Numbered from the stretch's first letter, positions 619-57,122 are shown. The stretch: DNA of 64,000 nucleotides from Dehalococcoidia bacterium (GCA_963422755.1 OY730488.1), one strand, 5' to 3'. Numbers and translations are program-made. The notes: generated from the letters alone by a model not told the origin.

Positions 619-1164
619 CTAAAATTCTGGCGGACCGATCTCAGTGAGCGCGTCTTCCGCGTGACCGTTGCTACGCGGACAGAGGTGCGACTCACCCTCG
701 ATCGGCGCTCGACACAGCGGACAGGTCGGACGCCCGCCGGCCAAGGTCTCTTCGGCTTGCACCACAAACAGGCGCGCGTCCCGGCGTCCGAGATCGACGC
801 GGATCGTCGGTGCGGGATCCGCCCCGACCGCCTCGACGTCGGTGGCGTACAGCGTGAACTGGCCAGCGTCCTCGTCATAGCCCAGCGCCATCCGGCCGGC
901 GAGGAAGTCGTGCGTGGCTCGGTCGGGGAACGGCGCCAACGGCTGCGCGGCCAGCCGCTGGCCCTCGCCCCGCCGTCGGTGTCGGGCGAGCAGCTGCTGG
1001 ATCGCCTCGGCGAGGGCGTTGACCTGCGTCTTCTCGCACCAGATCGAGGCGGTCACCGCGCCCGCCGTCACCCGTAGCCGAAAGCGACGCTGACCCGGCG
1101 GACCGATCGCTTCCGCCTCTAGCGCTTCGGCCACACCCAGATCATGCTCAGCCTCATTAGCCAT
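619..1164 (-). CDS. DUF3090 family protein
   Basis: An internal Met (MANEAEHDLG...) starts a 181-aa protein. It carries conserved DUF3090 features: IGPPGQRRFRLRV...EKTQV..., GRMALGYDEDAGQFTLYA and the C-terminal RPTCPLCRAPIEGESHLCPRSNGH zinc-ribbon motif. The longer 258-aa ORF is an N-terminal over-extension. Confidence 0.8.
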   Translation of the reverse strand: MANEAEHDLGVAEALEAEAIGPPGQRRFRLRVTAGAVTASIWCEKTQVNALAEAIQQLLARHRRRGEGQRLAAQPLAPFPDRATHDFLAGRMALGYDEDAGQFTLYATDVEAVGADPAPTIRVDLGRRDARLFVVQAEETLAGGRPTCPLCRAPIEGESHLCPRSNGHAEDALTEIGPPEF

Positions 1165-1329
1165 AGGCAAAGTATACCCGCGCCCGAATTTGGCGATCCC
1201 CGCATCTCTCTGGCGCCCGCCGGCACGAGACCAGTTCGCTCGCCGCAATTTCCCGCCCGACCAGAACTGCGCCAAGCATCTACCATGAAGGCCACAGACA
1301 CTCACTCCCCAACCGCCAGGAGCTGCGAT

Positions 1330-1782
1330 ATGGCCGTTGAGCTGGGACAGATGGCGCCCGACTTTCGCTTGATGGACGGCAACCGCACCGAGCACTCGCT
1401 ATCCGATTACCGTGGCCAGACCGTCGTCGTCGCCTGGTACGTGCTCGCCTTCACCGGCGGTTGAACCAACGAACTGAGCCGCTTCCAAGAACTCCACAGC
1501 GAGTTCCTGGCAGCCGGCGCCCAGGTGCTGGGCATCTCGGTTGATTCCCCATTCGCCAACGGCGCCTACGCCATCGAGCTGGGCCTCGACTTCCCGCTGC
1601 TCGGCGACTTCCCCTGGGGACGCACGGGGCGGGCCTGGGGGATCCTCAACGACGAGCGCGGCATCACCGCCCGCGTCACCTATGTCATCGACGCCGAAGG
1701 CGTGGTCCGACATATCATCGATGCACCACGGGACTTCCACGCGCACCCCGAGGGCGCGCTGGAGTTCATCAAATCGATGTAG
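1330..1782 (+). CDS. Peroxiredoxin (AhpC/TSA/Bcp-like) with an in-frame TGA at 1462..1464 in the position of the peroxidatic cysteine. This is a putative selenocysteine-containing peroxiredoxin; the alternative is a nonsense pseudogene.
   Basis: Track ORFs 1144..1464 and 1525..1782 share one frame and are separated only by the TGA. The joined product is MAVELGQMAPDFRLMDGNRTEHSLSDYRGQTVVVAWYVLAFTGG-U-TNELSRFQELHSEFLAAGAQVLGISVDSPF...VTYVIDAEGVVRHI... The Prx signature is xFTxxCTxE, and the TGA sits exactly where the catalytic Cys codon belongs. Confidence 0.6.
1485..1510 (+). other. Candidate bacterial SECIS-like hairpin, starting 20 nt downstream of the in-frame UGA of the peroxiredoxin
   Basis: ccaagaactc cacagc gagttcctgg forms a 10-bp stem with one A-C mismatch and a 6-nt loop, beginning 20 nt after the UGA. 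Confidence 0.3.
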
Positions 1783-2019: not shown

Positions 2020-2292
2020 ATGACCACCGCCGTCATCGACGCCGCGCCTGCGGCCGATTGCACCCACCATTGGCTGATCGCTTCGCCCAACGGCAAAGTG
2101 TCCGTGGGCCGCTGCCTGCGCTGCCGGGATACCCGCGAGTTTCTCAACTCGCTGGAAGAAGAAAAGCGGCTGAACAACAACGACCTCTATGCGCGGAACT
2201 ACGGCAAGTCCCGCAGCTCTGACAGCCGCATCGACGATGCTGAGTCTGCCTTGCGCGACATGTTCCGCCCGCGCCTCAGCGGCGCTGGCTAA
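2020..2292 (+). CDS. Small hypothetical protein with a C..HH...C..C cysteine/histidine cluster (putative zinc ribbon)
   Basis: A GGAGA ribosome-binding site sits 4 nt upstream of the ATG, and a promoter-like element lies upstream. The product is MTTAVIDAAPAADCTHHWLIASPNGKVSVGRCLRCRDTREF... The 5' extension of the track ORF lacks ribosome-binding-site support. Confidence 0.45.
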   Translation: MTTAVIDAAPAADCTHHWLIASPNGKVSVGRCLRCRDTREFLNSLEEEKRLNNNDLYARNYGKSRSSDSRIDDAESALRDMFRPRLSGAG

Positions 2293-2358: not shown

Positions 2359-2667
2359 ATGACTAGCCGCAGCGGCGGGCATGAGCCCGGCGATCCCCCT
2401 GATCTCGACGCTGACCTCGCCAGCTTCGCTGTGCGGGCAGTGCCCTTTGACGAATGGGTCGACATCGACACGCTGATCCATCGCAGCTCCGTCACTTCGG
2501 GCGACTTCGACTATGTCCTGCGTCCGCTCTGCCCCGATTGCGGGGCGGAGCTGGCCCTCGAGTACGAAACGCTCGAACCCGAAGCCGATGGCGGGCGTGA
2601 GGTGATTGCGGCGCTCGTCTGCACGACCTGCCGCATCCTGTGGGAGCCCGACCAGCCGGCAGAGTGA
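2359..2667 (+). CDS. Hypothetical protein with two CxxC pairs (zinc-ribbon-like)
   Basis: The ORF carries PLCPDCGAEL and VCTTCRIL. It is on the same strand as, and just upstream of, the sulfur-carrier gene. Confidence 0.4.
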   Translation: MTSRSGGHEPGDPPDLDADLASFAVRAVPFDEWVDIDTLIHRSSVTSGDFDYVLRPLCPDCGAELALEYETLEPEADGGREVIAALVCTTCRILWEPDQPAE

Positions 2668-2870: not shown

Positions 2871-3149
2871 TTGATGAGTGTCCTCGTGCGCATTCCCACA
2901 CCGCTGCGCCCGCTCGCGTCCGGACAGGACGTGGTCGAGGCCGACGGCGAGTCCCTCCAGCTCCTCGTCCTCGACCTCGAACGCCGGTTTCCCGGGATCG
3001 GCGAACGCATCGTCGACGAGGACGGCGACATTCGCCGATTCGTCAACCTCTTCGTCAACGGCGAAGACGTACGCTTCCTCGACGGCCTCCACACCGCCCT
3101 CAAGCAGGGGGACGAAGTCTCGATCGTCCCCGCCGTCGCCGGCGGCTGA
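2871..3149 (+). CDS. MoaD/ThiS/CysO-family sulfur-carrier protein with a C-terminal Gly-Gly
   Basis: VRIPTPLRPLASGQ...RRFVNLFVNGEDVRFLDGLHTALKQGDEVSIVPAVAGG* aligns closely with mycobacterial CysO-type beta-grasp sulfur carriers, which end in ...ILPAVAGG. Confidence 0.8.
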   Translation: MMSVLVRIPTPLRPLASGQDVVEADGESLQLLVLDLERRFPGIGERIVDEDGDIRRFVNLFVNGEDVRFLDGLHTALKQGDEVSIVPAVAGG

Positions 3150-3998: not shown

Positions 3999-4646
3999 CT
4001 ACGGCTGTAGGACACGCGCCAGCCACGTCGTGAGCAGCCGCCACAGCTCCTGCCGACGCTGCCGCAACGAGTGCGTCGCGCCCTCCAGTATGTGCAGCTC
4101 ACGACCCTCGCCAGCAATGCTGAACACCCACTCCGACAGGCGCGGCGGCAGACGCCAGTCAGCGTCGCCGTGGATCAGGAGCAGTGGGCGCGGTGCGAGC
4201 GACTGCACTTCGGATGGTTCGATACCCATCGTTTGCGTCGACAGCGCACAGACCGCCGCGACAACCGAAGCTGGCGACCGCGCCGCAGCGCGGATCACGA
4301 TCGCGCCACCGTAGGAGTGGCCGATCAGTGCAATCTGCTGCGCACCCTGCTCTTGCAACCACTCGATACCGGCAAGCACATCGAACGTACCGTCATCGAT
4401 CGGCCCTGGCGATGCCTTGATGCGGAAATCCAACCGCAATACGTCGAGGCCTCGACCAGGGAGCGTGTCTGAGAGATCGGCGTAGATGCTCTCAGCCGGC
4501 CCATCGAAGCCACCATCGAAGCCGCCTACGCAGAGGACGGCGCGGCGCCGCGCCGCGCTGCCCTTTGCGCTGGCCAACGCGCTGGGATGCCAACGCGCCG
4601 CGAGACGCCCCCGTTCAGTCACAATGGTCAACTCGGAATGATCCAC
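3999..4646 (-). CDS. Alpha/beta hydrolase (dienelactone-hydrolase-like)
   Basis: It has a GHSYGG nucleophile elbow and a C-terminal HGDADWRLP...GATH region. Confidence 0.75.
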   Translation of the reverse strand: MDHSELTIVTERGRLAARWHPSALASAKGSAARRRAVLCVGGFDGGFDGPAESIYADLSDTLPGRGLDVLRLDFRIKASPGPIDDGTFDVLAGIEWLQEQGAQQIALIGHSYGGAIVIRAAARSPASVVAAVCALSTQTMGIEPSEVQSLAPRPLLLIHGDADWRLPPRLSEWVFSIAGEGRELHILEGATHSLRQRRQELWRLLTTWLARVLQP

Positions 4647-4706
4647 ACCGCTTGTACGCTACTTCGCGAGCAACGCGCCCGCCGGGCGCACGAGGAATGG
4701 ACGCAT

Positions 4707-6170
4707 ATGACGTTGATTGTCAATCCACGAACCGACACCGCCGACTCACAGACCGCACTGGCCACCGCCTTCGCTCCGAACTCGATCGCGATTGCCGGCG
4801 TGTCGCCGCGCACCAGCGGTTGGGGCGGCGGACAAATGTTCCTGCGCGGCATCCGCAAGCTCAACCGCGTGCCCAATGTGTACTGTCTCAACCCACGTGG
4901 CGGCGAGCTCGATGACGGCACGACGCTCTACCGCTCGCTCAGCGAGGTGCCAGGTCCTGTCGAATCACTGATCTCCGCAGTACCGGCGTCCGCCATCCTG
5001 GAACTGGTCGAGGATGCCATCGCCCATGGCGTGCAGGTGCTCCACCTGTTCACCGCCGGGTTCGGCGAGACCGGCAGCTCGGAGCGCGCAAAGCTCGAGG
5101 CGGAAGTGCTGGGCAAGCTCGCGGCGGCGGGCATCCGCCTGATCGGACCGAACTGCATGGGCATCCACTCGACCCGCGGCGGCGTCTCCTGGATGGAAGA
5201 CGGAGCGACTGAGCCGGGCCGCGTCGGCATGCTGTCGCAATCGGGCATGAACGCGTCGGAAGTCGTCGGCGAGGGCGCACGGCGCGGCATTGACTTCTCC
5301 AACGTCGCATCCTTCGGCAACGCCTCCGACCTCAATGAGGCGGATTTCCTTGAGTTTCTGGCGCATGACCGCGATACCGACATCGTGCTCGCGTACCTCG
5401 AGGGCATCCGCGACGGTCGACGCTTCCTCGAGATCGCCCGCGCGATGTCACGCTCCGCTTCGAGCGATCGCAAACCACTGGTCGTACTCAAGGGCGGGCT
5501 GACCGAGGCCGGCTCCCGGGCCGCCTCCTCACACACCGGATCCTTAGCTGGCTCCGCGCAGATTTGGAACGCGGTCCAGCGACAGGCCGGCTTCATCCCC
5601 ACGCAGAGCGTCGAGGAGCTGCTCGACATCGCCGTCACCATTCAGCGCATGCCGACCGTCGCCGGCCCACGCTGCGCGGTACTCGGCGGCGGTGGCGGCG
5701 TCTCCGTGCTCGCGGCCGACATCTGCGACCGGAACGACATCCCCGTCCCCTGGTTCAGCGAGGACACCCAGCGCAGGCTGCGTGAATTCACTCCCGTCGC
5801 CGGCACATCGATCCGCAATCCACTCGATGCCGGGTTCATGTTCGAAGGCAAACACATGGAGACCGCGCTGACGTCCATCGCTGAGGACCCCAGCATCGAC
5901 TGGCTGATGCTGCACACCGGCGCTGACAACGGCGGCCCGCGCTCGCGCCAGGAGCACTTCGCCGAGCGCACCGCGAACTCCCTGGCGGCGATCGCGCCCC
6001 AGCTGTCGAAGCCACTCGCCGTCGTGATTCGGCAGCCGCGCACCAAGCGCGGCTTCGAGCGCGGCCTCGACCTGCAACGCCGACTCAACGAGCAGGGCAT
6101 CGCCTGCTACCAGAGCATCGAAGCCGCCGCGCGCGCCGTGCGACGCTACCTCGACTGGCGCACTCGTTAG
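4707..6170 (+). CDS. CoA-binding protein of the acetate--CoA ligase (ADP-forming) family, i.e. an NDP-forming acyl-CoA synthetase with fused alpha and beta domains
   Basis: The product has a succinyl-CoA-synthetase-like flavodoxin/CoA-binding domain (IAIAGVSPRTSGWGG, LIGPNCMGI, VLKGG...HTGSLAG). The start was chosen by alignment with the paralog at 35955..37400. Confidence 0.8.
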   Translation: MTLIVNPRTDTADSQTALATAFAPNSIAIAGVSPRTSGWGGGQMFLRGIRKLNRVPNVYCLNPRGGELDDGTTLYRSLSEVPGPVESLISAVPASAILELVEDAIAHGVQVLHLFTAGFGETGSSERAKLEAEVLGKLAAAGIRLIGPNCMGIHSTRGGVSWMEDGATEPGRVGMLSQSGMNASEVVGEGARRGIDFSNVASFGNASDLNEADFLEFLAHDRDTDIVLAYLEGIRDGRRFLEIARAMSRSASSDRKPLVVLKGGLTEAGSRAASSHTGSLAGSAQIWNAVQRQAGFIPTQSVEELLDIAVTIQRMPTVAGPRCAVLGGGGGVSVLAADICDRNDIPVPWFSEDTQRRLREFTPVAGTSIRNPLDAGFMFEGKHMETALTSIAEDPSIDWLMLHTGADNGGPRSRQEHFAERTANSLAAIAPQLSKPLAVVIRQPRTKRGFERGLDLQRRLNEQGIACYQSIEAAARAVRRYLDWRTR

Positions 6171-11734: not shown

Positions 11735-13018
11735 ATGACTCCAACCGCCCTCGACGGCGTCCGTGTGCTCGACCTCAGCTCGGAGATGGGCTGGTACGCA
11801 GGTAAGCTCCTCGCCGACCTCGGCGCGGATGTGATCAAGGTCGAACCCGTCGGCGGCGATCCCGCGCGGGCGCGTCCGCCGTTCTGGCTCGGTCAGCCTG
11901 GCCGCGAAACCTCGCTGCGCTTCTGGTACTTCAACGCCAACAAGCGCTCGGTCACCGTCGATCTGCAGCAGTTCGACGGACGCTGGCTCTTCGGACGCCT
12001 TGTCGAGACCGCCGACATCGTGATCGAGTCCTGGAGTGAGTCCGAGCGCGCAGCGCTGGCGACGCTGGAGATCGAGCCCGCGGCGTACCTTGAACAGCGA
12101 CCGTCACTGGTCTGGGCGTCGATCACTGGCTTCGGGCTCGATGGACCAAAGGCGGGCTGGGAGGTCACCGACATCGTCGCGCAGGCGGCGTCAGGCATCG
12201 CCACGCTGGCTGGCTATCCCGACGGCGCGCCGATGCGCATCGCCGGCAATCAGGCCTACATCGTGGCAGGCATCTCGGCGAGCCAAGGCGCCATGCTGGC
12301 GCTCCTGCAGGCGGAAGCGAGCGGCATCGGACAACGCGTCGAGACCTCGATCCAGGAAGCGTTCTCGATCTGCCAGGAGACCGCGCACCTGCAATGGGAC
12401 TTCCTGCGCACCTCCCGTGAGCGCGTCGGCGAGCGACGCCGATTGCCCGGAATCGGCACATATCAGACCCGCGACGGCTACATCTTCTCGATGGTCGGCA
12501 TCCCCGGCTTCGGCGCACCATGGTCGGAAGTGATCAACTGGATGGACGAGTCCGGACTGGCCGGCGATCTGACTGAGCAGGAAGACCTGGAGACCTTCGC
12601 CAAGTTTGACTTGCGCATCCTGCTGGACGATGCGGAACAGGCCAGGTTCGCCCCGCTGCTGGAACGCACGCACGAGCTCCTCTCCAGGTTCTACGCCAGC
12701 AAAACGTCGGTGGAGCTGTACGAGGAGGGACAATCGCGACGGCTGCTGATCGGCCAGGTCGCGACCCCCGCCGACCTGGCCGAGAACCAACACCTCGCGG
12801 CGCGCGAGTGGTGGCTGGAGCTCAACCAGCCCACCACGCTGGGACGCCCCGATGCCGCACTCAAGTTCCCCGGTTCGCCTTACCGCCTGTCCGAGACGCC
12901 AACCTCCATTCGTCGTCCGGCGCCCAGAATCGGTGAGCACAATCAGGAAGTATGGACAGCGGAGGTCGGCATTCCCGCTGCAGACCTGCTCGCATTCGCC
13001 GGCGAGGGCGCAATATGA
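11735..13018 (+). CDS. Family III CoA-transferase (CaiB/BaiF)
   Basis: The N-terminus LDGVRVLDLSSEMGWYAGKLLADLGADVIKVEP is followed by the family III architecture. Confidence 0.85.
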   Translation: MTPTALDGVRVLDLSSEMGWYAGKLLADLGADVIKVEPVGGDPARARPPFWLGQPGRETSLRFWYFNANKRSVTVDLQQFDGRWLFGRLVETADIVIESWSESERAALATLEIEPAAYLEQRPSLVWASITGFGLDGPKAGWEVTDIVAQAASGIATLAGYPDGAPMRIAGNQAYIVAGISASQGAMLALLQAEASGIGQRVETSIQEAFSICQETAHLQWDFLRTSRERVGERRRLPGIGTYQTRDGYIFSMVGIPGFGAPWSEVINWMDESGLAGDLTEQEDLETFAKFDLRILLDDAEQARFAPLLERTHELLSRFYASKTSVELYEEGQSRRLLIGQVATPADLAENQHLAAREWWLELNQPTTLGRPDAALKFPGSPYRLSETPTSIRRPAPRIGEHNQEVWTAEVGIPAADLLAFAGEGAI

Positions 13019-14259
13019 CATTGACAACCAGCCAGCGCCCCCTGGATGGCATCCGCGTCGCCGATTTCTCCTGGTTCGGCGCGGGCCCGATCGCCGCACG
13101 GACGCTCGCCGACTTCGGCGCAGAGGTGATTCGAATCGAATCGGAAGCCCGCGTCGACGGCCTGCGCATCGGCGAACCGATCAAGCCTGGCGGAACCGGC
13201 TACAACGTCTGCGCATACTTCAACAACTTCAACGCCGGTAAGCGCTCGTTCTTGCTCAACATGTCTATGGACGGCGCGCGCGCCGTCGCCTACCGACTGA
13301 TTGAGCGTTCCGACATCTTCATCTCCAACCTGACGCCGCGCATGTTCGAACGCTGGGGGCTGAGGTACGAGGATCTCTGCAGCATCAAGCCCGACATCAT
13401 CGCCGCCTACCAACCCATGCTCGGTTTGTGGGGTCCGCATCGCGACCACGCCGGCTTCGGCGCCGTGTTGACTCCAACGACCGGCATTTCGCATCTGTCG
13501 GGCGATCCTGAACGCAAGCCGGTTGGGGTAGGCACCAACTATCCGGACTACGTGATCAATCCCGGCCACACCGTCATTGCCATCTTGGCCGCGCTCCGCC
13601 ACCGTCGACGCAGCGGCCATGGTCAGCGCATCGAGCTGGCCCAGCTGGAGTCCGTCGCCGCCACGATGGGGCCGGCGTTGCTCGACTACACCGCCAACGG
13701 AGTCGTACAGAGCCGCAAGGGGAATCAGTCCTCCTGGATGTGCCCGCACGGAATCTACCAATGCGCGAACGACCCCGCGGGGCGCGAACGCTGGATCGCG
13801 ATCGCCATCAGCTCGGACCAGCACTGGGCGTCGCTCTGCACCGTCGCCGACAGCGCGGCATTCGCGTCGGACGACCGCTTCGGTACTCTCTTGGGGCGAC
13901 GCCGTCACGAGTCCGAGCTGAACGACATCGTCTCCGAGTGGACCGCTGGCTGCGATGCCGCGTCGCTGGCCGCCACCCTGCAGTCGGCCGGGGTAGCGGC
14001 ATCCGTGGTGCAAGACGCGGAGGACATCTGCGAGCACGACGAGCATCTGACGGCGCGCGGCTACTACCAGTACATCGACCATCCAGAGACCGGCCGCTCG
14101 CTCTACGACGGACCGATCGTGAAGCTGCACGGCGCCCCCGGTCGACTGGACACTCCGGCACCGTTGTTCGGCAACCATACCTACGAGGTCGCGGTGGACG
14201 TGCTGGGCTACTCCGCCGAGGAAGTGGCGGAGCTCACCGCCCGCGGCGTGCTCAGCTAG
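13015..14259 (+). CDS. Family III CoA-transferase (CaiB/BaiF), translationally coupled to the preceding paralog (ATGA overlap)
   Basis: The N-terminus is LDGIRVADFSWFGAGPIAARTLADFGAEVIRIES. Its start overlaps the upstream stop. Confidence 0.85.
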   Translation: MTLTTSQRPLDGIRVADFSWFGAGPIAARTLADFGAEVIRIESEARVDGLRIGEPIKPGGTGYNVCAYFNNFNAGKRSFLLNMSMDGARAVAYRLIERSDIFISNLTPRMFERWGLRYEDLCSIKPDIIAAYQPMLGLWGPHRDHAGFGAVLTPTTGISHLSGDPERKPVGVGTNYPDYVINPGHTVIAILAALRHRRRSGHGQRIELAQLESVAATMGPALLDYTANGVVQSRKGNQSSWMCPHGIYQCANDPAGRERWIAIAISSDQHWASLCTVADSAAFASDDRFGTLLGRRRHESELNDIVSEWTAGCDAASLAATLQSAGVAASVVQDAEDICEHDEHLTARGYYQYIDHPETGRSLYDGPIVKLHGAPGRLDTPAPLFGNHTYEVAVDVLGYSAEEVAELTARGVLS

Positions 14260-23131: not shown

Positions 23132-23971
23132 ATGACCGACAGCGGATTCCAGCGGTTCCAGGGCCGGTTCCAAGGCAAGGTCGCCTTGGTCACCGGCGGT
23201 GCCTCGGGCATGGGCGCTGAGTCCTCAATCAGACTGGCCCGCGAGGGCGCGGCCGTCGCGGTTGTGGGACTCGAACACGACCCGCGCGGCGCGGATGTCG
23301 TCGAACAGATCAGGGACGCCGGCGGACAGGCAATCTACATCGGCTGCGACGTCTCACGCGAGTCCGACTGCGACGCAGCCGCACAGGCCGCCGTCGACGC
23401 CTTCGGCCGCATCGACCTCTGCATCGCCGCCGCTGGCATCCTGCACGCGCGCTACGTTTCCGGCGAGGCGTCCGACAACGATCCCTCGCCAGCGAACCGC
23501 GCGGGACATGTGATCAACAAGCCCATCGAATTCTGGGAGCAGGTGCTGGCGGTCAACCTGACTGGCGTGATGCTGACCAACCGCGCAGTGGCGCGGCGAA
23601 TGATCGCGCAAGGCGGCGGCGGCGCGATCGTTAACATCAGCAGCGGCGCCGCCAAGATCCCCATGCCCGGCGGCGCTGACTACTCCGTCTCCAAAGCTGG
23701 CGTCTGGATGCTGACCCGTTGCATCGCGCTTGAACTCGCGCCGCACAACATCCGCGTCAACACGGTCGCGCCGGGTGTGATCGATACACCCATGGCGCTA
23801 TCGCTGTCGCAGGACGAACAACGCCGCGCCGCCTTCGAGCGATTCGTGCCGCTCGGACGACTCGGCGCGGCTGAGGACATCGCCGAAGCTTCACTGTTCT
23901 TGCTGAGCGATCACGCGAGCTACATCACCGGCCAAATCCTGCATCCCGACGGTGGCATCTTCAGCGGCTAA
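23132..23971 (+). CDS. SDR-family oxidoreductase
   Basis: It has TGGASGMG, a YxxxK region (YSVSKAG) and a C-terminal ITGQILHPDGG. Confidence 0.85.
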   Translation: MTDSGFQRFQGRFQGKVALVTGGASGMGAESSIRLAREGAAVAVVGLEHDPRGADVVEQIRDAGGQAIYIGCDVSRESDCDAAAQAAVDAFGRIDLCIAAAGILHARYVSGEASDNDPSPANRAGHVINKPIEFWEQVLAVNLTGVMLTNRAVARRMIAQGGGGAIVNISSGAAKIPMPGGADYSVSKAGVWMLTRCIALELAPHNIRVNTVAPGVIDTPMALSLSQDEQRRAAFERFVPLGRLGAAEDIAEASLFLLSDHASYITGQILHPDGGIFSG

Positions 23972-24025: not shown

Positions 24026-24865
24026 ATGTCCCTGCCACCTGAGGAGTCGATGAACCGTTTCGCTGGCAGAGTCGCCGTGGTCACTGGTGGTGCGAGCGGT
24101 ATGGGGCGAGAATCGTCTATTCGGCTAGGGCGCGAGGGCGCCGCGGTCGTGGTCGCTGGCCTCCCCGACGACGAACGCGGCCCTGAGACCGTCTCGCTCG
24201 TCGAGGCCGTCGGCGGACAGGCGGTCTACGTCGGTGTCGATGTGACCCGCGAGGCCGATTGCGACGCCATGGCCCAGACCGCGATCGATCAGTTCGGACG
24301 CCTGGACCTCTGCATCGCGGCGGCCGGCATCTCGCACGCTGGCTACGTCTCGGGCGAAGTGAGCGAGGGAGAACCGCTGCTCGGTGGCGCGCAGCGATAC
24401 GTCATCCACAAGCCGGTCGAGTACTGGGAGAAGGTGCTCGCAGTCAATCTGACCGGCGTGATGCTGACCAACCGCGCTGTCGCTCGCCACATGATCGCGC
24501 AGGGTGAAGGCGGGGCCATCGTCAACATCTCCTCCGGCGCGGCAAAGGCGCCGATTCGCGGCATGGCCGACTATTGCGTGTCAAAGGCCGGCGTCTGGAT
24601 GATGACCCGCGTGCTCGCGCTCGAGCTCGCCGCCCACCAAATTCGCGTCAACACGGTCGCGCCAGGGCTGATTGACACGCCGATGACGCTCGCCGTCACC
24701 ACCGACGAAGAGCGCCGCCAGCGCCGCGTCGAATCCATTCCGCTCAATCGGCTCGGCGAGCCGGCCGATATCGCCGAAGCAGCGCTCTTCCTGCTCAGCG
24801 AACAGTCCAGCTACATCACCGGGCAGATCCTCCACCCCGACGGCGGGATCTTCGTTGGCAGCTAG
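24026..24865 (+). CDS. SDR-family oxidoreductase, tandem paralog of the preceding gene
   Basis: It is collinear with the 23132..23971 product along its full length. An AAAGGAG ribosome-binding site precedes the ATG. Confidence 0.85.
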   Translation: MSLPPEESMNRFAGRVAVVTGGASGMGRESSIRLGREGAAVVVAGLPDDERGPETVSLVEAVGGQAVYVGVDVTREADCDAMAQTAIDQFGRLDLCIAAAGISHAGYVSGEVSEGEPLLGGAQRYVIHKPVEYWEKVLAVNLTGVMLTNRAVARHMIAQGEGGAIVNISSGAAKAPIRGMADYCVSKAGVWMMTRVLALELAAHQIRVNTVAPGLIDTPMTLAVTTDEERRQRRVESIPLNRLGEPADIAEAALFLLSEQSSYITGQILHPDGGIFVGS

Positions 24866-35325: not shown

Positions 35326-35958
35326 TTACTCGCTCCAGCCGTTCCAGTGGAGGAACGTCTCGAGCGGCCGACGGGGCACCGGGCCGAAGTTGGCGTCAGG
35401 GTGGCCCAGCGGAATGATCGCCACCGGCAGCGCGTTGCTGGGAATGCCCAGCTCCTCGCGGAGCTCGTCCATGATGCCGTCCTGAGGCGTGGTCAACACC
35501 GTCCCCAATCCTTCCGCGCGCGCCGCTAGCATCAAGTTCTGGATGCTCGGATAGATGCTGCTACCCGCCAGCAGTCCCGACGGCGACGGCGACGGCGACT
35601 CCGGCCGCACCAGACAGGGAATGATCCAGACTGGCGCGGCGGCGAAGTTGTCGAACAGTGTGAATGCGCCACGCAGCATCCGACGTTGCGTCGGATCGGG
35701 CAGGTCGTCAGGGTTCGGCAGATCGCCGCCCATGCGCTGGTTGAATGAGTCGCGAATCGCTGACGCTAATCGCTCGCGGATGCCGTCGTCGGTGACGACC
35801 AGGAATCCCCAGGGTTGCGAGTTACTGCCACTGGGCGCCCAACACGCCGCTTGGATCACCCGTTCGATCGTCTCACGGTCGACCGCTTCGTCTGTCCAGC
35901 GGCGGATCGCGCGCTGGGTGTGCATGACCTCGTAAATGTCTGTGGTTCGGCCACTCAT
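35326..35958 (-). CDS. Nitroreductase-family protein
   Basis: It has the nitroreductase N-terminal signature RRWTDEAVDRETIERVIQAACWAPSGSNSQPW. Confidence 0.8.
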   Translation of the reverse strand: MSGRTTDIYEVMHTQRAIRRWTDEAVDRETIERVIQAACWAPSGSNSQPWGFLVVTDDGIRERLASAIRDSFNQRMGGDLPNPDDLPDPTQRRMLRGAFTLFDNFAAAPVWIIPCLVRPESPSPSPSGLLAGSSIYPSIQNLMLAARAEGLGTVLTTPQDGIMDELREELGIPSNALPVAIIPLGHPDANFGPVPRRPLETFLHWNGWSE

Positions 35959-37400
35959 GGTTCGTCCCGTTCGTTGCGCCGAGTTTGCCAGGTCAGGAGC
36001 CGCCGCATGGCGCGGGCGGCATCGCGGATGTGGTAGTAGAGCGGCAATCCCGCCGCCGACATCATGCGGGACATCTCTGCGTTCGTACGGCCTGCTGCGT
36101 GATCGAACGAAATCGGCACCACGACCGAGATCGCTATCCCATACCGCTCTCGAGCGTTCACGATCGACTCAATCATCGCCCGTCGCGCGGTCAAACGGTC
36201 CAAATCAAAGTGATCGACACCCCAATTCATGCCGATCTGGAGGATGATCGCATCGATATGCGGATCCTCTGCAACAGCATCGAGTGTCGGTTCCAGGCTG
36301 GCCCCGTCCCACAGCGACATCGTGTCGACCGGATTGCGGATGCCAGTCCCCGCGACCGGTGTGACTTCGCCCAGCCGGCGCAGAGTGTCGTCGGCCAGCC
36401 CAGGCAGCGCCAGGCCTTCCCGCTCGACGTCGTCGGCGCCTTGCACCGAAATGCCGCCACCACCCACGACGAGACCGATGCGCGGACCGGCTGGTACCGC
36501 GTGGAACCGCCAGCCGACCAGCATGTCGACCATTTCCTGCATGTTGTGGACGAGCACCGCGTTGGCCTGGAGCGCAGCCGCCGACCAGATTTGCCCGGAG
36601 CCCGCTAGCGACGCCGTGTGCGACTGCGTCGCACGGCCGCCCGAGGGCAACAGGCCACCCTTGAGGATGGCGACGGGCTTCTGGACTGCGGTCCGGCGTA
36701 GCGAACGAAAGAATTCGCGTGCGTCCGGCATGCCTTCGATGTACGCCCCGATCAGCTCGGTTTGCGGGTCGGATGCCGCGTAGTCGAGGAGTTCAGCTGC
36801 AGACACGTCAATCGCGTTGCCAAACGAGACCACCTTGGAGAACCGCAGCCCGCGCACTGCTCCGTTATAGGCGGCGTCGCTCGCATTCGTGCCCGACTGC
36901 GAGAAGAACGCCACCGGCCCAGCCTCAGTTGGCAACGCCTGCGCGAACGAGACCCGCCCACTGGGCACGTACAGCCCCATGCAGTTCGGACCGATCAGAC
37001 GAATGCCCAGCTCGGCGGCGCGCGACTGAAGCTGATGCTGCAACTCGAGGCGGTCCGCCCTGCCGGTCTCAGCGAAGCCGGCGGTGAACAGGTGGATCGA
37101 GCGCACGCCCTTGGCCGCCGCGTCCTCGAGCATCGGCAGTACATATGCTGCTGGAATCGCGCTGATCACATGGTCGACAGGTCCCGCAATATCGGTCAGT
37201 CGCGCATACGACGGTAGACCGTCGATCTCGTCCGCCTTGGGGTTGACGGGATAGATATTGGGCTGGCCGACATCACGCAGCGACTGGATCCAACCGCCTG
37301 GACCACGAACACTGCCACTGTCGCGCGACGCCCCAACCACGGCGACGCCACGCGGATGAAAGATGGCGTCGAGCGGATGCGCGGCAGCAAAGTCAGTCAC
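35955..37400 (-). CDS. CoA-binding protein of the acetate--CoA ligase (ADP-forming) family, a paralog of 4707..6170
   Basis: It is collinear with the 4707..6170 product (VAVVGASRDSGSVRGPG, LIGPNCMGL, ILKGG...HTASLAG). Its start overlaps the nitroreductase stop (ATGA). Confidence 0.8.
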   Translation of the reverse strand: MTDFAAAHPLDAIFHPRGVAVVGASRDSGSVRGPGGWIQSLRDVGQPNIYPVNPKADEIDGLPSYARLTDIAGPVDHVISAIPAAYVLPMLEDAAAKGVRSIHLFTAGFAETGRADRLELQHQLQSRAAELGIRLIGPNCMGLYVPSGRVSFAQALPTEAGPVAFFSQSGTNASDAAYNGAVRGLRFSKVVSFGNAIDVSAAELLDYAASDPQTELIGAYIEGMPDAREFFRSLRRTAVQKPVAILKGGLLPSGGRATQSHTASLAGSGQIWSAAALQANAVLVHNMQEMVDMLVGWRFHAVPAGPRIGLVVGGGGISVQGADDVEREGLALPGLADDTLRRLGEVTPVAGTGIRNPVDTMSLWDGASLEPTLDAVAEDPHIDAIILQIGMNWGVDHFDLDRLTARRAMIESIVNARERYGIAISVVVPISFDHAAGRTNAEMSRMMSAAGLPLYYHIRDAARAMRRLLTWQTRRNERDEP

Positions 37401-38018: not shown

Positions 38019-38812
38019 TCGGGCGCAGCGCCTGCCGAAATCGCGGAGCCGTCCCGTTCGAGTCGGTAGCGGTCGTAGTAGCCCTCGGGCGCATTCTGCA
38101 TGAAGGCGGAGATCTGCTCGTTGCCCTCGGCGTCCCATTGACGCACCGCGAGCAGCGAGCGCCAGGCGGCGACCACGATCGTCGCGCTGTCGTGCGACTC
38201 CGGCAGACCTGCCAGCGGCACGACGGCCAGCCGCTCGCGGAATTGATGCAGGCTCTGCATCGCCCCCAGCAGACCGGATGGATCGTCGGCGCCTGTGTAC
38301 GTGTCAGGGTCGTAGTAGATCACCACACCGCCACGTTCCAGCAGCGGCAGCAGCTCGAACGGTTCGGGGACATCCTCATCATCAGGTAGGTAGACTTTGG
38401 CATCCACGCTCTCCGACGGCTGCGGACCAGAGGTCGGCGGGAAAGAGTTGTACGCGTCAAAGGCGTCGCCCTCCTCCAGATGTCGGCGCCCCTGATCGGG
38501 GAACGTCTGCACGCCCTCGACTGTGAGCACGTCTTCGGGCGGGAAGAGCAACTGCATGGCGAAGACGGCGATCATCGCCACCAGCAGTCCGCCCAGCAAC
38601 GCCACCGACATACGCGGCAGGCCGAAGATCGTGCCGCGGCGCTGCGGTGTCGCGTCCGAGCTGCTCGAACGTCGCCCCCCGCCTCGACCGCGGTCATCAG
38701 CCTCTGCAGCCGGGGCAGTATCTGCACGGCGGCCGACTTCCGACTCGCCGCCCTCGCCCGCCGGTCGCGCGGGCCGACGACGCCGGCGGCGACGTGGTGA
38801 CTGTTGGCTCAT
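38015..38812 (-). CDS. DUF3105-like membrane-anchored protein, a tandem paralog
   Basis: An Arg-rich cytoplasmic N-terminus is followed by a TM helix and an extracytoplasmic domain with the related motifs HLEEGDAFDAYNSFPPTSGP and LERGGVVIYY. Confidence 0.55.
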   Translation of the reverse strand: MSQQSPRRRRRRRPARPAGEGGESEVGRRADTAPAAEADDRGRGGGRRSSSSDATPQRRGTIFGLPRMSVALLGGLLVAMIAVFAMQLLFPPEDVLTVEGVQTFPDQGRRHLEEGDAFDAYNSFPPTSGPQPSESVDAKVYLPDDEDVPEPFELLPLLERGGVVIYYDPDTYTGADDPSGLLGAMQSLHQFRERLAVVPLAGLPESHDSATIVVAAWRSLLAVRQWDAEGNEQISAFMQNAPEGYYDRYRLERDGSAISAGAAPE

Positions 38813-40062
38813 TGCGCGACTCCCGCCGCCACCAGCGCGCCCAACTCTTCACTGCTGAGCCCAAGCTCGCCGCAGACAATCTCGGCCGTGTGCTCGCCTA
38901 GTAGCGGCGCCCGTCGACCGTGCGACCACGGCGTCTCGCTCAATACGTACGGCGCGCCGGGAAATGTCACCGTACGCTCCTGCTCCTCATGCTCGATCTC
39001 GACGAAGAACCCGCGCGCCCGCCAATGCTCATCGGCGAGACACTCGTCGGGCGTGCGAACAATGCTCCAGGCCGCACCAGCGGCTTGTGCGCCAGCGTAT
39101 ATCTCCTCAGCATCATGCGCTGCGATGAACTCGGCAATATCCGCCAGCATCATCTTCACAGTCGGTTGACTCAACCCCAGCTGACGCTTGCGTCCATCCA
39201 ACAGCTCCAAGTCAGACAGATTCGCCCCCATCCCCTTCGACTGGATGAACGCCACCAGCGCCAGCCAGCTCGCCTCCGAGCGGGGCATGCCGAAGATATT
39301 GATCAGGCGACCGTCAGCGGTCGGATACTGCCACGGCTCGGTCGGCTGCGGACCGGCATGCCGGCCCGCCTGGCGAATGAGCGGGTGTCGCTCGTACAGC
39401 GCCCACGGCGCCGACGACTCGATCGTGAATCCCATGCACTCGTGCATCGAAACATCGAGGTGCTGCCCCAAACCGCTCTGCTGGCGCTCATAGAGCGCCG
39501 CACAGACACCCGTGGCTGCAAAGTAGCCAGCGATGTGTGAGGCATGATGTTCGGTCGGGCGAATCGGCGGCGCAGCGGGAATGCTGTCGTAGCCACAGCT
39601 CCCCATTGGCCCGCCGAGCGCCAGTCCGACCGCGTCCGACCAGGCGAAATCGCGCCACGGCCCGGTCTGTCCGAACGGCGTCAAACTGAGTACCACCAGC
39701 TGTGGTAGGTGATCAGCGAGCGCCACAGGATCGAGCGGGCGGCCACGGCCTGGCTGCCACGTCTCGAGGACGACATCCGCCCTCTCGGCGAGCTGCAAGA
39801 ACAACTCGATTCCGTCCTCGGCGTGCAAATCAAGCGCCACCGAGCGTTTTCCAGCGGCGTAGTGCCACCAGTAGAGGCTGCGCTCGGGCCCCGGCTGGTC
39901 GTCGAGGAACGGCCCCGTGCGTCGCCCGATGTCGCCGCCGGGCGGTTCGATCTTGATCACATCCGCGCCCAGGCCGGCCAGCAGCTTGCCCGCGAAGTGC
40001 CCCTTCGGATCCGAGCAATCCAGCACCCGAACGCCGTCCAACGCCCCACGTGAGTCAGTCAT
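38809..40062 (-). CDS. Family III CoA-transferase (CaiB/BaiF)
   Basis: An internal Met (MTDSRGALDGVRVLDCSDPKGHFAGKLLAGLGADVIKIEP) starts the protein. The longer 484-aa ORF is an N-terminal over-extension. Confidence 0.85.
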   Translation of the reverse strand: MTDSRGALDGVRVLDCSDPKGHFAGKLLAGLGADVIKIEPPGGDIGRRTGPFLDDQPGPERSLYWWHYAAGKRSVALDLHAEDGIELFLQLAERADVVLETWQPGRGRPLDPVALADHLPQLVVLSLTPFGQTGPWRDFAWSDAVGLALGGPMGSCGYDSIPAAPPIRPTEHHASHIAGYFAATGVCAALYERQQSGLGQHLDVSMHECMGFTIESSAPWALYERHPLIRQAGRHAGPQPTEPWQYPTADGRLINIFGMPRSEASWLALVAFIQSKGMGANLSDLELLDGRKRQLGLSQPTVKMMLADIAEFIAAHDAEEIYAGAQAAGAAWSIVRTPDECLADEHWRARGFFVEIEHEEQERTVTFPGAPYVLSETPWSHGRRAPLLGEHTAEIVCGELGLSSEELGALVAAGVAQ

Positions 40063-40064
40063 CG

Positions 40065-41321
40065 TTAGCCCAACGCTCCGTTGGCCGTGAGCTCGGCGAT
40101 GCGCTCGCCACTCAGGCGCAGGAGCTCGCCGAACACGTAGCTGTTCGCCTCGCCCAGCACTGGACCAGGCCGATCGCGGTGCGCCGGCGTGCGTGAAAAG
40201 CGAAGCTGCAGACCATCCGTCAGATGTTCGCCGATCACTGGATGCTCGCGCGCCACCGTCCACTCACGCGCCTGCATCTGCGGATCATGGACCACGAGAT
40301 CGACGCCATTCTGCACGACGCCAGATGGAACATCGGCGTCCTGCAACCGACGCATCAGCGCGCGACCGTCCTGCCCCGCCGTCCAGGCGCCGATCAGCTC
40401 GTCCAGCTCGTCCTGATGCCGCAGACGCGACGGCAGTGTCGCAAAGCGAGCGTCACTGCGCCAGTGCGGATGATCGCTCACCGCGCAGAATGCCTCCCAC
40501 TCCGCGTCGGACGTGCAGCTGATCATGATCCAGTTGTCATGCCCGGCCGTTGGATAGGTATTGTGCGGTACCGCTTGCGGCCAGACCGCGCGGTTGCCCG
40601 GCGGATTGCCAGTGTCGCGATAGCGCCGTCCATTGACCGTGAAATCGAGCGTTGCGGGCCCAGTCAGTGCCATCCCGGTCTCAACCTGTGAGAGATCGAT
40701 CCACTGTCCCTGCCCGGTCTCGCGGCGGTGATGCAGCGCTGCCACAATTGCCGCCGCCGCCGTGAATCCCGCCATATGATCGAGGTACGAATATCCCCAG
40801 CCGGCTGGCTCGGGCGCATCGGGCAGCCCTGACATCGCGGTCAGACCGCTGAGTGCCTGCGCGGTTGGCCCCCACGTCGAGTAGTCGCGCTGCGGCCCAG
40901 AGTGCCCGAAGCCCGAGAGCGAGGTGTAGATGATCTGCGGGTTCTCGTCGCGCTGCTCGTCGTAGCTCAGCCCCCAGCTCTCGAAGACGCGTGAGGAGTA
41001 GTTTTCGACCACGACGTCGGAGACGCGAATCAGCCGCTTGATCAGGTCGAGGCCGTCGGGATGGCGCGCATTGACGGTGATCGAGCGCTTGCTGCGGTCC
41101 AGCCAGTTGAACATCGCGCTCGAGTTCGGCGGATCGAACCCGCCCGGATGCGGACGGCCGAAGCGGATCGAGTCGAGTGTCTGCTCATTCTCGACACGGA
41201 TCACTTCCGCACCGAGATCGCCCAACAGCCGCGTACAGGTCGGCCCGGCGACGATCCATGTGAAGTCGACCACGCGGACACCCGCAAGAGGTGGCTGCGC
41301 GGCTGGCTCGGGTTCCGTCAT
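40065..41321 (-). CDS. Family III CoA-transferase (CaiB/BaiF), tandem with 38809..40062
   Basis: The N-terminus is LAGVRVVDFTWIVAGPTCTRLLGDLGAEVIRVEN, and the stop lies 2 nt before the next gene's start. Confidence 0.85.
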   Translation of the reverse strand: MTEPEPAAQPPLAGVRVVDFTWIVAGPTCTRLLGDLGAEVIRVENEQTLDSIRFGRPHPGGFDPPNSSAMFNWLDRSKRSITVNARHPDGLDLIKRLIRVSDVVVENYSSRVFESWGLSYDEQRDENPQIIYTSLSGFGHSGPQRDYSTWGPTAQALSGLTAMSGLPDAPEPAGWGYSYLDHMAGFTAAAAIVAALHHRRETGQGQWIDLSQVETGMALTGPATLDFTVNGRRYRDTGNPPGNRAVWPQAVPHNTYPTAGHDNWIMISCTSDAEWEAFCAVSDHPHWRSDARFATLPSRLRHQDELDELIGAWTAGQDGRALMRRLQDADVPSGVVQNGVDLVVHDPQMQAREWTVAREHPVIGEHLTDGLQLRFSRTPAHRDRPGPVLGEANSYVFGELLRLSGERIAELTANGALG

Positions 41322-51566: not shown

Positions 51567-54419
51567 ATGTCTCACACACACGAAATCCTCGACACGATCG
51601 ATGAAGCTGCGCCCACCCTGCCCAGCGACACCGCCGTTGAAGAGCGCCCCCAGACGCATCCCCCCCCCCGCCCGCTTCGCGAAGCGCTGATTGGCCGCTA
51701 CTTCACCCAGCCCGGCGTCGACGTCTACGAGCAGATTGAGTGGACCTACCGCTCGGCCCAGATCTCGACCGACAGCGGCGACACGATCTTCGAGCAGCAC
51801 GACATCGAAACGCCCGCTTTCTGGTCCCAGGCCGCGACCAACATCGTCGCATCCAAGTACCTCTGGGGTAAAATGGACACACCCCAACGCGAACGCTCGA
51901 TCAAGACGCTGATCGACCGCGTGGTCGAGACCATCACTCGCTGGGGCCGCGACGGCGGCTACTTCACCGACGCCGCGGCGTCGTCAGCCTTCTCGCAGGA
52001 ACTGCGCTACCTGCTCGTCAACCAATACGCCGCATTCAACTCGCCCGTCTGGTTCAACGTCGGCATCGAAGAGCAGCCACAGTGCTCGGCCTGCTTCATC
52101 AACTCCGTCGAGGACACGATGGAGTCAATCATGGACCTCGCCACGCGTGAGGCGCTGCTCTTCAAATGGGGCAGCGGCACCGGCTCCAACCTGTCAACCT
52201 TGCGCTCGAGCCGCGAGGCGCTCACCGGCGGCGGACACGCCTCCGGCCCAGTCTCGTTCATGCGCGGCTACGACGCCTTCGCCAACGTGATCAAGTCGGG
52301 CGGCAAGACTCGCCGCGCCGCCAAGATGATCATCCTCAACGCCGACCACCCTGACATCATGGAGTTCATCCACTCCAAGGCCGCAGAAGAACGCAAGGCC
52401 TGGGCCCTGATCGATGCCGGCTACGACGGCTCGCTCAATGGCGACGCCTACTCATCGGTCTCATTCCAGAATGCCAACCACTCCGTGCGCGTCAGCGACG
52501 ACTTCATGCGCGCGGTCGAAACCGACAGCATCTGGACCACCCGTGAAGTCGTCAGTGGCGAAGTGGTCGAACGCCTCCCAGCCAGCGACATCCTCCGCGC
52601 CGTCGCCGCGGCCACGCACCAGTGCGGCGACCCCGGGATCCAGTTCGACACCGTCATCAACGACTGGCACACCTGCGCCAACACCGACCGCATCTACGCA
52701 TCCAACCCCTGCTCCGAGTACATGTTCCTCGATGACACCGCCTGCAATCTCGCCTCGCTCAACCTGCTCAAGTTCTACGATCTCGATACCCACACGTTCA
52801 ATGCCGACGCCTTCAGCCACGCCTGCCGCGTCATGATCACCGCCCAGGAGATTCTCGTCTCGAACGCTTCGTACCCCGCGAAGCTGATCGAGGAACGATC
52901 AAATCAATTCCGCACGCTGGGACTGGGCTACACCAACCTCGGCGCGCTGCTGATGGCGCGCGGGCTGCCCTACGACTCGCAAGACGGCCGCGCCCTCGCC
53001 GCGACCGTGACCGCGCTGATGACCGGCGAGGCGTACCACCAGTCGGCCCGCATCGCCCAACGCGTCGGCCCGTTCGCCGGCTTCGACGCCAACCGCGACC
53101 CCTTCCTCAACGTCATGCGCAAGCACCAGGCGGCCGTCGAACGGATCGACGGGATCGAGACCGTCCCCGTTCCGCTCCGCGAGGCCGCCGCGACTGCCTG
53201 GCGTCAGGCGATCGCCTTGGGACAGCAGCACGGATACCGCAATGCGCAAGCCACCGTCCTTGCGCCGACCGGCACCATCTCGTTCATGATGGACTGCGAC
53301 ACCACCGGCGTGGAGCCCGACATCTCGCTGGTCAAGTACAAGAACCTCTCCGGCGGTGGCGGCTTCAAGATCGTCAACCGCACGGTCCCCGCCGCGCTGC
53401 GTCGACTCGGCTACCACCAACAGGCGATAGAGCGCATCAGCGCCCACATCGACGAGAGCGGCACGATCGAGGGCGCGCCAGATCTTGATCCCGCGCATCT
53501 CTCCGTCTTCGACTGCGCCTTCAAACCAGCCAACGGAACGCGCAGCATCGCCCCGCTCGGACACATCCGCATGCTCGGTACCGTCCAACCCTTCCTCTCG
53601 GGCGCCGTCTCCAAGACCGTCAACGTACCCGAGCACACCTCCGTCGATGAGATCATGCAGACCTACATCGAAGCCTGGAAACTCGGCGTCAAGGCGGTCG
53701 CGATCTACCGCGACAACTCCAAGCGCGTGCAACCACTCGAAACCAGCACAGGGACTCAGTCGGTACCAACTCCAGCACAGACGCAGCTGGAGATGTCAAA
53801 GGTCACGGACGACCCCGTCGTAGTCGACGCCGCCGGCGGGCCGCCGGGATATCGCCGCCACCGCCTCCCAGACGAGCGCAGCGCTATCAATCACAAGTTC
53901 ACGATCGGCGAACACGAGGGCTATCTCACCATCGGCGAGTACGAAGACGGTAGCCCAGGCGAAGTGTTTGTCCACATTTCCAAGGAAGGGACGATCGCCT
54001 CCGGTCTGATGGACGGCGTCGCCGCGCTGACCTCCGTGGCGCTGCAGTCTGGCGTGCCGCTCTCGACGCTGATCAAGAAGTTCGCCCACACCCGCTTCGA
54101 ACCGAGCGGATGGACGCGCAATCGCGACATCCCGCAGGCCGACTCGATCCTCGACTACATCTTCCGTTGGATGGGCCTGCGCTACCTCAACAATGACGAT
54201 GCCGACAGCATCGCCCAGCAAGTGCGCATGGCCATCATCCAGAACGAAGACGCCGTAGCCGATCAGACCACTGGGCCGAAGCCAATCACGGCGTCAGCCC
54301 AACCCAGCTTCCAGCACCAGCTCGACGCCCCGCTCTGCGCGAACTGCGGCTCGCTCATGGTGCGCGCCGGCTCCTGCCACCGCTGCATGAACTGCGGCGA
54401 GACCTCTGGCTGCAGCTAA
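51567..54419 (+). CDS. nrdJ: Vitamin B12 (adenosylcobalamin)-dependent ribonucleoside-diphosphate reductase, class II
   Basis: The 950-aa protein has the class II RNR active-site region NPCSEYMFLDDTACNLASLNL and a C-terminal zinc ribbon (CANCGSL...CHRCMNCG). Confidence 0.9.
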   Translation: MSHTHEILDTIDEAAPTLPSDTAVEERPQTHPPPRPLREALIGRYFTQPGVDVYEQIEWTYRSAQISTDSGDTIFEQHDIETPAFWSQAATNIVASKYLWGKMDTPQRERSIKTLIDRVVETITRWGRDGGYFTDAAASSAFSQELRYLLVNQYAAFNSPVWFNVGIEEQPQCSACFINSVEDTMESIMDLATREALLFKWGSGTGSNLSTLRSSREALTGGGHASGPVSFMRGYDAFANVIKSGGKTRRAAKMIILNADHPDIMEFIHSKAAEERKAWALIDAGYDGSLNGDAYSSVSFQNANHSVRVSDDFMRAVETDSIWTTREVVSGEVVERLPASDILRAVAAATHQCGDPGIQFDTVINDWHTCANTDRIYASNPCSEYMFLDDTACNLASLNLLKFYDLDTHTFNADAFSHACRVMITAQEILVSNASYPAKLIEERSNQFRTLGLGYTNLGALLMARGLPYDSQDGRALAATVTALMTGEAYHQSARIAQRVGPFAGFDANRDPFLNVMRKHQAAVERIDGIETVPVPLREAAATAWRQAIALGQQHGYRNAQATVLAPTGTISFMMDCDTTGVEPDISLVKYKNLSGGGGFKIVNRTVPAALRRLGYHQQAIERISAHIDESGTIEGAPDLDPAHLSVFDCAFKPANGTRSIAPLGHIRMLGTVQPFLSGAVSKTVNVPEHTSVDEIMQTYIEAWKLGVKAVAIYRDNSKRVQPLETSTGTQSVPTPAQTQLEMSKVTDDPVVVDAAGGPPGYRRHRLPDERSAINHKFTIGEHEGYLTIGEYEDGSPGEVFVHISKEGTIASGLMDGVAALTSVALQSGVPLSTLIKKFAHTRFEPSGWTRNRDIPQADSILDYIFRWMGLRYLNNDDADSIAQQVRMAIIQNEDAVADQTTGPKPITASAQPSFQHQLDAPLCANCGSLMVRAGSCHRCMNCGETSGCS

Positions 54420-56750: not shown

Positions 56751-57122
56751 ATGGAACCACGCGACACACGACTGGAACTGATCGCTGAGATCGTCGAGGA
56801 CGAGCGGCAGCTCGATGGCAGTCGACACATCGAACTCGTCGGCGCTGTGCAACCGGCGGACCTCGCGCTGCGACTGGTCGTCACCCGCGACGGCGTGGTG
56901 CAGGAAGCGGAGCTACATCTGAAACGCGGAGAAACCTGGCACGTGGTGACGTTCGACCGTACCGAGCCCAACCACCCCACCGACATGCCCGACGACGACC
57001 GCAGCGGCCTATTCACCATGAAACTGCACGCGGACGGCGTTGCACTCAGCCTGGACCAGCGCGATGACGGAGACATCGCCCTCAGCCTGCAGCTAGAACA
57101 TACGCCGGAGGTCGGCACATGA
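56751..57122 (+). CDS. Hypothetical protein translationally coupled to cofD (ATGA overlap)
   Basis: An internal Met starts a 123-aa acidic protein whose stop overlaps the cofD ATG. The 5' part of the track ORF is antisense to the PHP gene and is spurious. Confidence 0.4.
   Translation: MEPRDTRLELIAEIVEDERQLDGSRHIELVGAVQPADLALRLVVTRDGVVQEAELHLKRGETWHVVTFDRTEPNHPTDMPDDDRSGLFTMKLHADGVALSLDQRDDGDIALSLQLEHTPEVGT

Follow-up and report, generated by a model that had tools for sequence, protein, structure and literature searches.

A predicted UGA-encoded selenocysteine peroxiredoxin without cysteine residues in Dehalococcoidia

The analysis of a 64,000-nucleotide stretch of DNA from a Dehalococcoidia bacterium (hereafter the window) indicates that the gene at 1330..1782 very probably encodes a peroxiredoxin (Prx) in which a UGA codon specifies selenocysteine (Sec) at the peroxidatic position. 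The Sec reading of this TGA had been put forward in the original prediction, and it is now supported by the conservation of the TGA among relatives, by selection acting downstream of it, by a hairpin specific to the Sec forms and by a second selenoprotein gene in the same window. The features on which the argument is built are collected in Table 1.

Table 1. Location of the features discussed, counted from the first nucleotide of the window
Feature	Position	Strand	Remarks
DUF3090 gene	619..1164	-	divergent from the Prx gene; PF11290, E 9.4e-32; TIGR03847-like
Shine-Dalgarno-like AGGAG	1318..1322	+	7 nt 5' of ATG 1330; read from the sequence, presumed function
Predicted Sec peroxiredoxin CDS	1330..1782	+	150 codons including one Sec codon; TAG stop 1780..1782
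In-frame TGA, predicted U45	1462..1464	+	peroxidatic-Cys position of the T-x-x-C motif
SECIS-like interrupted hairpin	1479..1517	+	inside the CDS; 12-14 bp stem-loop, core 1481..1514
Hairpin, lower stem	about 1479-1487 with 1508-1517	+	
Hairpin, upper stem	1489-1494 with 1501-1506	+	
Hairpin, apical loop CACAGC	1495..1500	+	six bases
UGSC-family (seleno)protein gene	63566..64000	-	5' end cut by the window edge; predicted Sec codon TGA 63815..63817

Direct translation of the frame from 1330 to 1782 meets a single interruption, the TGA, and the joined product of 150 amino acids (aa) carries the motif AFTGG-U-TNE. With Cys put at the TGA, residues 6-129 of this product match the AhpC-TSA profile PF00578 with an E value of 6.8e-33 and a score of 113.7 bits against a cutoff of 26, and positions 2-124 of the 124 in the profile are covered. 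This end-to-end match bears out the earlier claim that two open reading frames (ORFs), lying in the same frame and split only by the TGA, form one complete AhpC/TSA peroxiredoxin when joined. The upstream ORF had been delimited as 1144..1464. It exists as a mechanical ORF, but the true start is the ATG at 1330, from which the N-terminus MAVE[IL]GQ is conserved in all orthologues; the DUF3090 gene, on the other strand, extends as far as 1164.

The TGA had also been placed exactly at the peroxidatic Cys, and the alignments confirm this position. U45 aligns with Cys45 in the LAFTGIC segment of M. tuberculosis AhpE (Rv2238c), the closest relative of known structure (E 5e-22, 81 bits), and the same column is an invariant Cys in the alignment of 38 full-length Cys homologues.

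The search of one genome per bacterial species (GTDB species representatives) gave 38 loci, all of them in Dehalococcoidia/Chloroflexota MAGs, several of which come from sponge metagenomes as judged by their bin names. The proteins share 80-88% identity, and all 38 genes have TGA at the same codon with no further stop or frameshift. Four more divergent genes (56-62% identity in the protein alignment) were found on metagenome contigs through their mis-called C-terminal fragments, and each of them also has TGA at codon 45, which brings the count to 42 of 42 related genes. The check on close relatives named in the original prediction, an intact TGC or TGT at this codon, thus returned TGA in every species genome and every divergent contig. 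The selection acting on the two parts of the gene is nearly the same: in the set of 39 sequences made up of the window and its 38 genome orthologues, codons 46-144 have a dN/dS of 0.073 and codons 1-44 one of 0.068, at a dS of about 0.95, so that synonymous sites are nearly saturated. Cys codons appear at greater distance, as 80 more distant metagenomic homologues have TGC (65) or TGT (15) at the peroxidatic position. The query of that metagenome scan carried Cys45, which biased the scan towards Cys forms; it returned mainly these, and they were used as a control set.

These data decide against the view that a former Cys codon has mutated to TGA, leaving a nonsense pseudogene, or that the TGA is a base-call error. 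A lone in-frame stop is typical of a pseudogene when one sequence is viewed, and the public gene callers agree with such a view, all close homologues being stored as short fragments. Yet the same TGA recurs in 42 independent related genes that contain no other stops or frameshifts, and the part downstream of it is under the purifying selection given above. The explanation, against which the original prediction had asked for a check, is refuted by the conservation data and retains next to no probability.

The same conservation of the TGA, together with nearly equal dN/dS on its two sides, tells against a product that simply ends at codon 44. In the arrangement with two products, a 44-residue peptide terminating at the TGA would be accompanied by an independently initiated C-terminal fragment, and it may be said for it that gene callers give two ORFs on two of the divergent contigs (L040, L041) and that a TTG occurs shortly past the TGA in some orthologues. 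We consider it very improbable: no start codon is conserved past the TGA, the first in the window being GTG 1525, 20 codons downstream, although codons 46-65 belong to the best conserved part of the protein. Neither half makes a Prx fold by itself, as the active site needs both the half with Thr and Sec and the half with Arg115.

UGA is otherwise an ordinary stop in this genome. TGA terminates 19 of the 50 predicted genes of at least 150 aa in the window, and a scan of all six frames of the 64 kb for TGAs that have, on each side, coding-type GC1/GC2/GC3 composition and no other stop within 40 codons yields just two, 1462..1464 and 63815..63817 on the minus strand. Looser scans of the 64 kb added antisense artefacts only. 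A genome-wide reassignment of UGA (code 4 or code 25), by which the TGA would be an ordinary Trp or Gly codon, has nothing in its favour beyond the in-frame TGA itself. It is refuted by the stop-codon usage of the window, and the two TGAs within coding-type sequence both lie at redox motifs; the chance that it applies is vanishingly small.

The UGA is followed by an interrupted hairpin, the stem of which begins 15 nt past the UGA, with the loop 31-36 nt past it. The 40 nt from 1478 to 1517 fold with a minimum free energy (MFE) of -16.3 kcal/mol (z -3.53; 0 of 200 dinucleotide shuffles equally stable), and the same region in a 76-nt context is not significant (z -1.4). The original prediction had described a 10-bp hairpin at 1485..1510; a hairpin is indeed present, but it is larger than proposed, and the 10-bp element is its inner part. 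In the same folding test, four orthologues (L003, L036, L039 and L041) gave z values from -3.6 to -5.0 at the same position, and a two-part hairpin was seen at this place in all 13 sequences folded. Under a 14-pair model, 91% of the cells are paired across 39 sequences, compared with 30-57% after the partner strand has been displaced by 1-3 columns.

The conservation of pairing exceeds what the protein dictates. The observed value of 91.1% compares with 80.3% expected from the protein and codon usage (sd 1.3, maximum 84.7) in 1000 synonymous-codon resamplings from the window's own codon usage; the relatedness of the sequences inflates this statistic, but dS is near saturation. The bias is visible at single codons: at pair 34-45 GAG is never replaced by GAA (100% vs 75% expected), and at pair 24-55 CGC or CGT is almost never replaced by CGG or CGA (95% vs 63% expected). 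Moreover, where the peptide has EFEAAG in place of EFQEAG, a register shift of 3 nt preserves the lower stem, and GCCGCUUC pairs with GAAGCGGC. By MFE, the comparison with synonymous-codon resampling is weak (mean z -1.3), and the window itself, with z -0.39, is not better than its resamplings. RNAalifold and pair counting in the 39 sequences found 0 hairpin pairs altered on both sides; the substitutions are all one-sided, wobble-compatible transitions. Compensatory double changes are lacking because the 39 sequences are 92% identical in the hairpin stretch.

The hairpin is confined to the Sec forms. The same 40-nt position in the 80 Cys-form homologues has a mean MFE of -8.1 and a mean z of 0.07, with none below -3, and two further Cys forms subjected to the same fold test gave z -0.7 and +1.2. 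No SECIS family of Rfam matched, either at the gathering threshold over the whole window or at E up to 10 on 1440..1560, where the matches were chance miRNA-type hairpins only. Bacterial SECIS elements are gene- and lineage-specific, and for this reason the missing Rfam match is unsurprising. The apical loop contains a G, which is a named feature of bacterial SECIS elements (PMC1088965). We regard the hairpin as a conserved RNA element that is specific to the Sec forms and placed as expected for a bacterial SECIS, for which compensatory covariation provides no proof.

The second gene with a TGA at a redox motif, which the original prediction had noticed at the other end of the window, matches the curated model NF041046, 'UGSC family (seleno)protein', with 149.8 bits against a cutoff of 125, and its TGA falls at the U of D-U-G-S-C. 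At least two genes of the organism therefore depend on Sec decoding, and the UGSC gene supports its occurrence there. As an observation apart, the UGSC gene contains a short hairpin, CUGCAC-GAC-GUGCAG, 7 nt past the UGA; the 73-nt fold is not significant (z +0.55). Chloroflexi were listed with the Sec trait in 2006 (PMC1794560), and the BSepDB survey of 2026 places two Dehalococcoidia MAGs among the top ten bacteria for the number of selenoprotein genes, with 49 and 46 (PMC13326102). As regards the decoding machinery, ARAGORN detected no tRNA genes, tRNA-Sec included, in the window or in the 42 related loci, the SelB P-loop and SelD N-terminus motifs were absent from the sequences searched (the window and related loci), and no SelA, SelB or SelD was found among the 30 window genes scanned with Pfam.

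The UGA might be read through without Sec, by a near-cognate Trp or Cys tRNA or by another kind of programmed read-through, with the hairpin as a stimulator or a by-product of protein constraint. The outcome of the machinery searches in the window agrees with such read-through, as do the hairpin pairs free of compensatory double changes and the missing Rfam SECIS match. Against it, the UGA stands exactly on a redox-active Cys column, which is the signature of a Sec/Cys pair, only two UGAs of the window are read through, and the other one occupies the U position in a gene of a curated selenoprotein family. Additionally, an enzyme with Trp or Gly as its peroxidatic residue would be dead, which does not fit the strong purifying selection on the gene, and Dehalococcoidia are documented as rich in selenoproteins (PMC13326102). 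We give this alternative a low probability, and the Sec reading is preferred.

During translation of the Sec peroxiredoxin, the hairpin at 1479..1517 would act as a bacterial SECIS and recruit SelB with Sec-tRNASec, so that the UGA at 1462..1464 would be decoded as Sec with no termination. We infer that selenium is inserted at U45 in this SelB-dependent way and that the product is an active peroxidase. The U45 selenolate, predicted from the alignments to share the Prx active site with Thr42 and Arg115, would attack the O-O bond of the peroxide to give a selenenic acid. The oxidised enzyme would then be recycled by an external thiol reductant, in a '1-Sec' mechanism analogous to that of the 1-Cys AhpE. 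External recycling is proposed because the protein contains no Cys at all and has Ser where BCP-type relatives have the resolving Cys; a thiol from outside would thus have to reduce the selenenic acid.

The active-site region combines conserved and unusual residues. Arg115 is invariant in both protein alignments, including that of the 38 full-length Cys homologues, and Thr42 is present. Codon 38 (1441..1443) encodes Val in place of the Pro of the PxxxTxxC motif (WYVLAFTGGU); the 42 related Sec-form genes have Val38 in 41 cases, L039 being the one that retains Pro, which is found in at least 90% of the Cys homologues. The loss of a Pro that is otherwise universally conserved counts against the preferred reading. 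The count of Cys residues in the window protein is zero. The nearest full-length Cys homologues share 31-43% identity in the protein alignment, and most of them have a second, resolving Cys 5-6 residues past the peroxidatic one, where the Sec clade has Ser at +5.

The window protein scores below the cutoff of every curated NCBIfam model. The top match is the PrxU model NF040737, with 68.3 bits against a cutoff of 270, and the protein is therefore not a PrxU orthologue; the Bcp and PrxQ models follow with about 57 bits. The subfamily assignment to AhpE is tentative, because the margin over the archaeal BCP-type structures is small (81 vs 74 bits). By sequence, the protein is tentatively described as an AhpC/TSA thiol-peroxidase-fold enzyme that is nearest to the AhpE and BCP types.

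The kind of enzyme to which the gene is attributed is well known. Sohling et al. reportedly described PrxU of Eubacterium acidaminophilum in 2001 as the prototype TxxU Sec-peroxiredoxin. TxxU Sec-peroxiredoxins are an established selenoprotein family (PMC1088965, PMC2398784, PMC13188914), and a review of 2026 lists them as experimentally established (PMC13188914). In the Sargasso Sea set Prx was the second most abundant known selenoprotein family, with 43 genes in COG1225 (Bcp type) (PMC1088965), the GOS data gave 253 Sec-Prx genes (PMC2398784), and a 2016 survey counted 91 Sec-Prx proteins in 78 organisms (PMC5029168). The conversion of Cys to Sec in Prx has been inferred to have occurred at least five times (PMC1794560). 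Given their first description in 2001 and their abundance in marine metagenomes, TxxU Sec-peroxiredoxins are a known kind of enzyme, and the window gene joins it. It shares with the family of Zhang and Gladyshev, PrxU included, the PF00578 domain, Sec in place of the peroxidatic Cys (here T42-G-G-U45) and a SECIS-type hairpin within the CDS directly 3' of the UGA. It differs in the motif, which is VxxxTxxU and not PxxxTxxU, in the lack of Cys and in its Dehalococcoidia/Chloroflexota lineage.

M. tuberculosis AhpE belongs to the same length class (153 aa), has its peroxidatic residue at position 45 in LAFTG-x-C/U and likewise has no resolving Cys, a likeness that points to recycling by an external reductant. 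The peroxidatic residue of AhpE is Cys and its active-site Pro is retained, whereas the window protein has U45 and V38. The atypical 2-Cys peroxiredoxins of the BCP/PrxQ type share F-T-x-x-C-T-x-E, some with exactly FTGGCTNE or FTGGCTKE, but most BCP/PrxQ homologues have the resolving Cys in place of the Ser of the Sec clade. What is specific to the window gene is the lineage, the Cys-free, AhpE/BCP-like active-site region with Val for Pro, the lack of a model that reaches its cutoff and the annotation as fragments. Sec glutathione peroxidases follow a like chemistry in outline, in which a selenolate reacts with a hydroperoxide to give a selenenic acid that is then reduced by thiols; they differ in belonging to another thioredoxin-fold family, with another catalytic tetrad and the motif UxxT. 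To our knowledge, they have no sequence relationship to the window Prx beyond the fold.

Three JGI metagenome contigs (L051, L083 and L112) represent a further Sec clade of this subfamily, a soil clade whose SECIS sequence is unrelated and whose active-site Pro is kept. Each of them carries tandem Prx paralogues on one strand, about 590 nt apart, with the motif FTGG[U/C]TKE. One copy of each pair has TGA and the other TGC at the peroxidatic codon (TGA 730 and TGC 1293 in L051, TGA 141 and TGC 730 in L083, TGA 34 and TGC 623 in L112). A 9-bp hairpin, GGGAUACCA-GGC-UGGUAUCUC, starts 17 nt past the U of the UGA in the TGA copy alone; on all three contigs the Cys copy lacks the 3' arm of this hairpin.

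The neighbourhood of the Sec-Prx gene is preserved in nearly all loci, in the order MFS transporter, DUF3090 (divergent), Prx, two small ORFs, ThiS/SAMP-like gene and enoyl-CoA hydratase. In 40 of the 42 related loci, among them the divergent L039-L041, DUF3090 precedes the Prx gene in divergent orientation, and its protein has a C-terminal CPLC...C motif. A functional link between DUF3090 and the Sec-Prx, e.g., as its reductant, is possible, with plain synteny as the alternative. More far-reaching is the idea that the clade is an independently evolved, Cys-free '1-Sec' Prx of the AhpE/BCP type, which has given up the Pro that is otherwise universal in the active site (VxxxTxxU) and relies for its recycling on a partner of its own, perhaps the DUF3090 protein with its CxxC motif. 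We regard this idea as speculative and rather unlikely; if true, it would describe a distinct selenium-based module for peroxide reduction, beyond another Sec/Cys swap.

The two small ORFs at 2020..2292 (+) and 2359..2667 (+), between the Prx gene and the ThiS/SAMP-like gene at 2871..3149, are conserved in 38 related loci with 35-54% and 56-82% identity, respectively, and have no Pfam or NCBIfam family match. Elsewhere in the window, Pfam matches identify family III CoA-transferases (12952..14259 and 38809..40263) and CoA-binding/succinyl-CoA-ligase-like proteins (4587..6170 and 35955..37400), and the ORFs at 11735..13018 and 40065..41321 appear, on a look at their sequences, to have CoA-transferase-like N-termini. 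The CoA-transferase regions 11735..14259 and 38809..41321, together with acetyl-CoA synthetase, carboxyl transferase and enoyl-CoA hydratase, give the window a strong flavour of acyl-CoA metabolism. Two adjacent ORFs of 279 aa, at 23132..23971 (+) and 24026..24865 (+), have V-T-G-G-A-S N-termini and look like tandem paralogues of short-chain dehydrogenases. The housekeeping context includes a class II (B12-dependent) ribonucleotide reductase with a C-terminal TSCPD domain at 51567..54419 (+) and CofD of F420 biosynthesis at 57119..58060 (+).

The mis-annotation of the Sec-Prx clade is systematic. In a collection of 5.8 billion proteins, the 25 close clusters (P0001-P0025, about 239 member sequences) consist entirely of C-terminal fragments of 85-112 aa that start past the TGA. 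Their members come from many Dehalococcoidia MAGs, several of them apparently sponge-derived, and one fragment record is named 'redoxin domain-containing protein'. On some contigs (L040 and L041) the gene callers made a gene of its own out of the N-terminal 44-65 aa. The expectation that standard annotation would miss the gene has thus come true, some records being split into two ORFs.

The finding adds a further case of Cys-to-Sec replacement in peroxiredoxins and leaves the knowledge of selenoproteins unchanged. A model of the clade that includes the SECIS would mend many records and add to the counts of the selenoproteome in marine and sponge-associated Chloroflexota. Since the enzyme is free of Cys, it would offer a clean system in which the peroxidatic chemistry of Sec and Cys may be compared on an AhpE/BCP scaffold.
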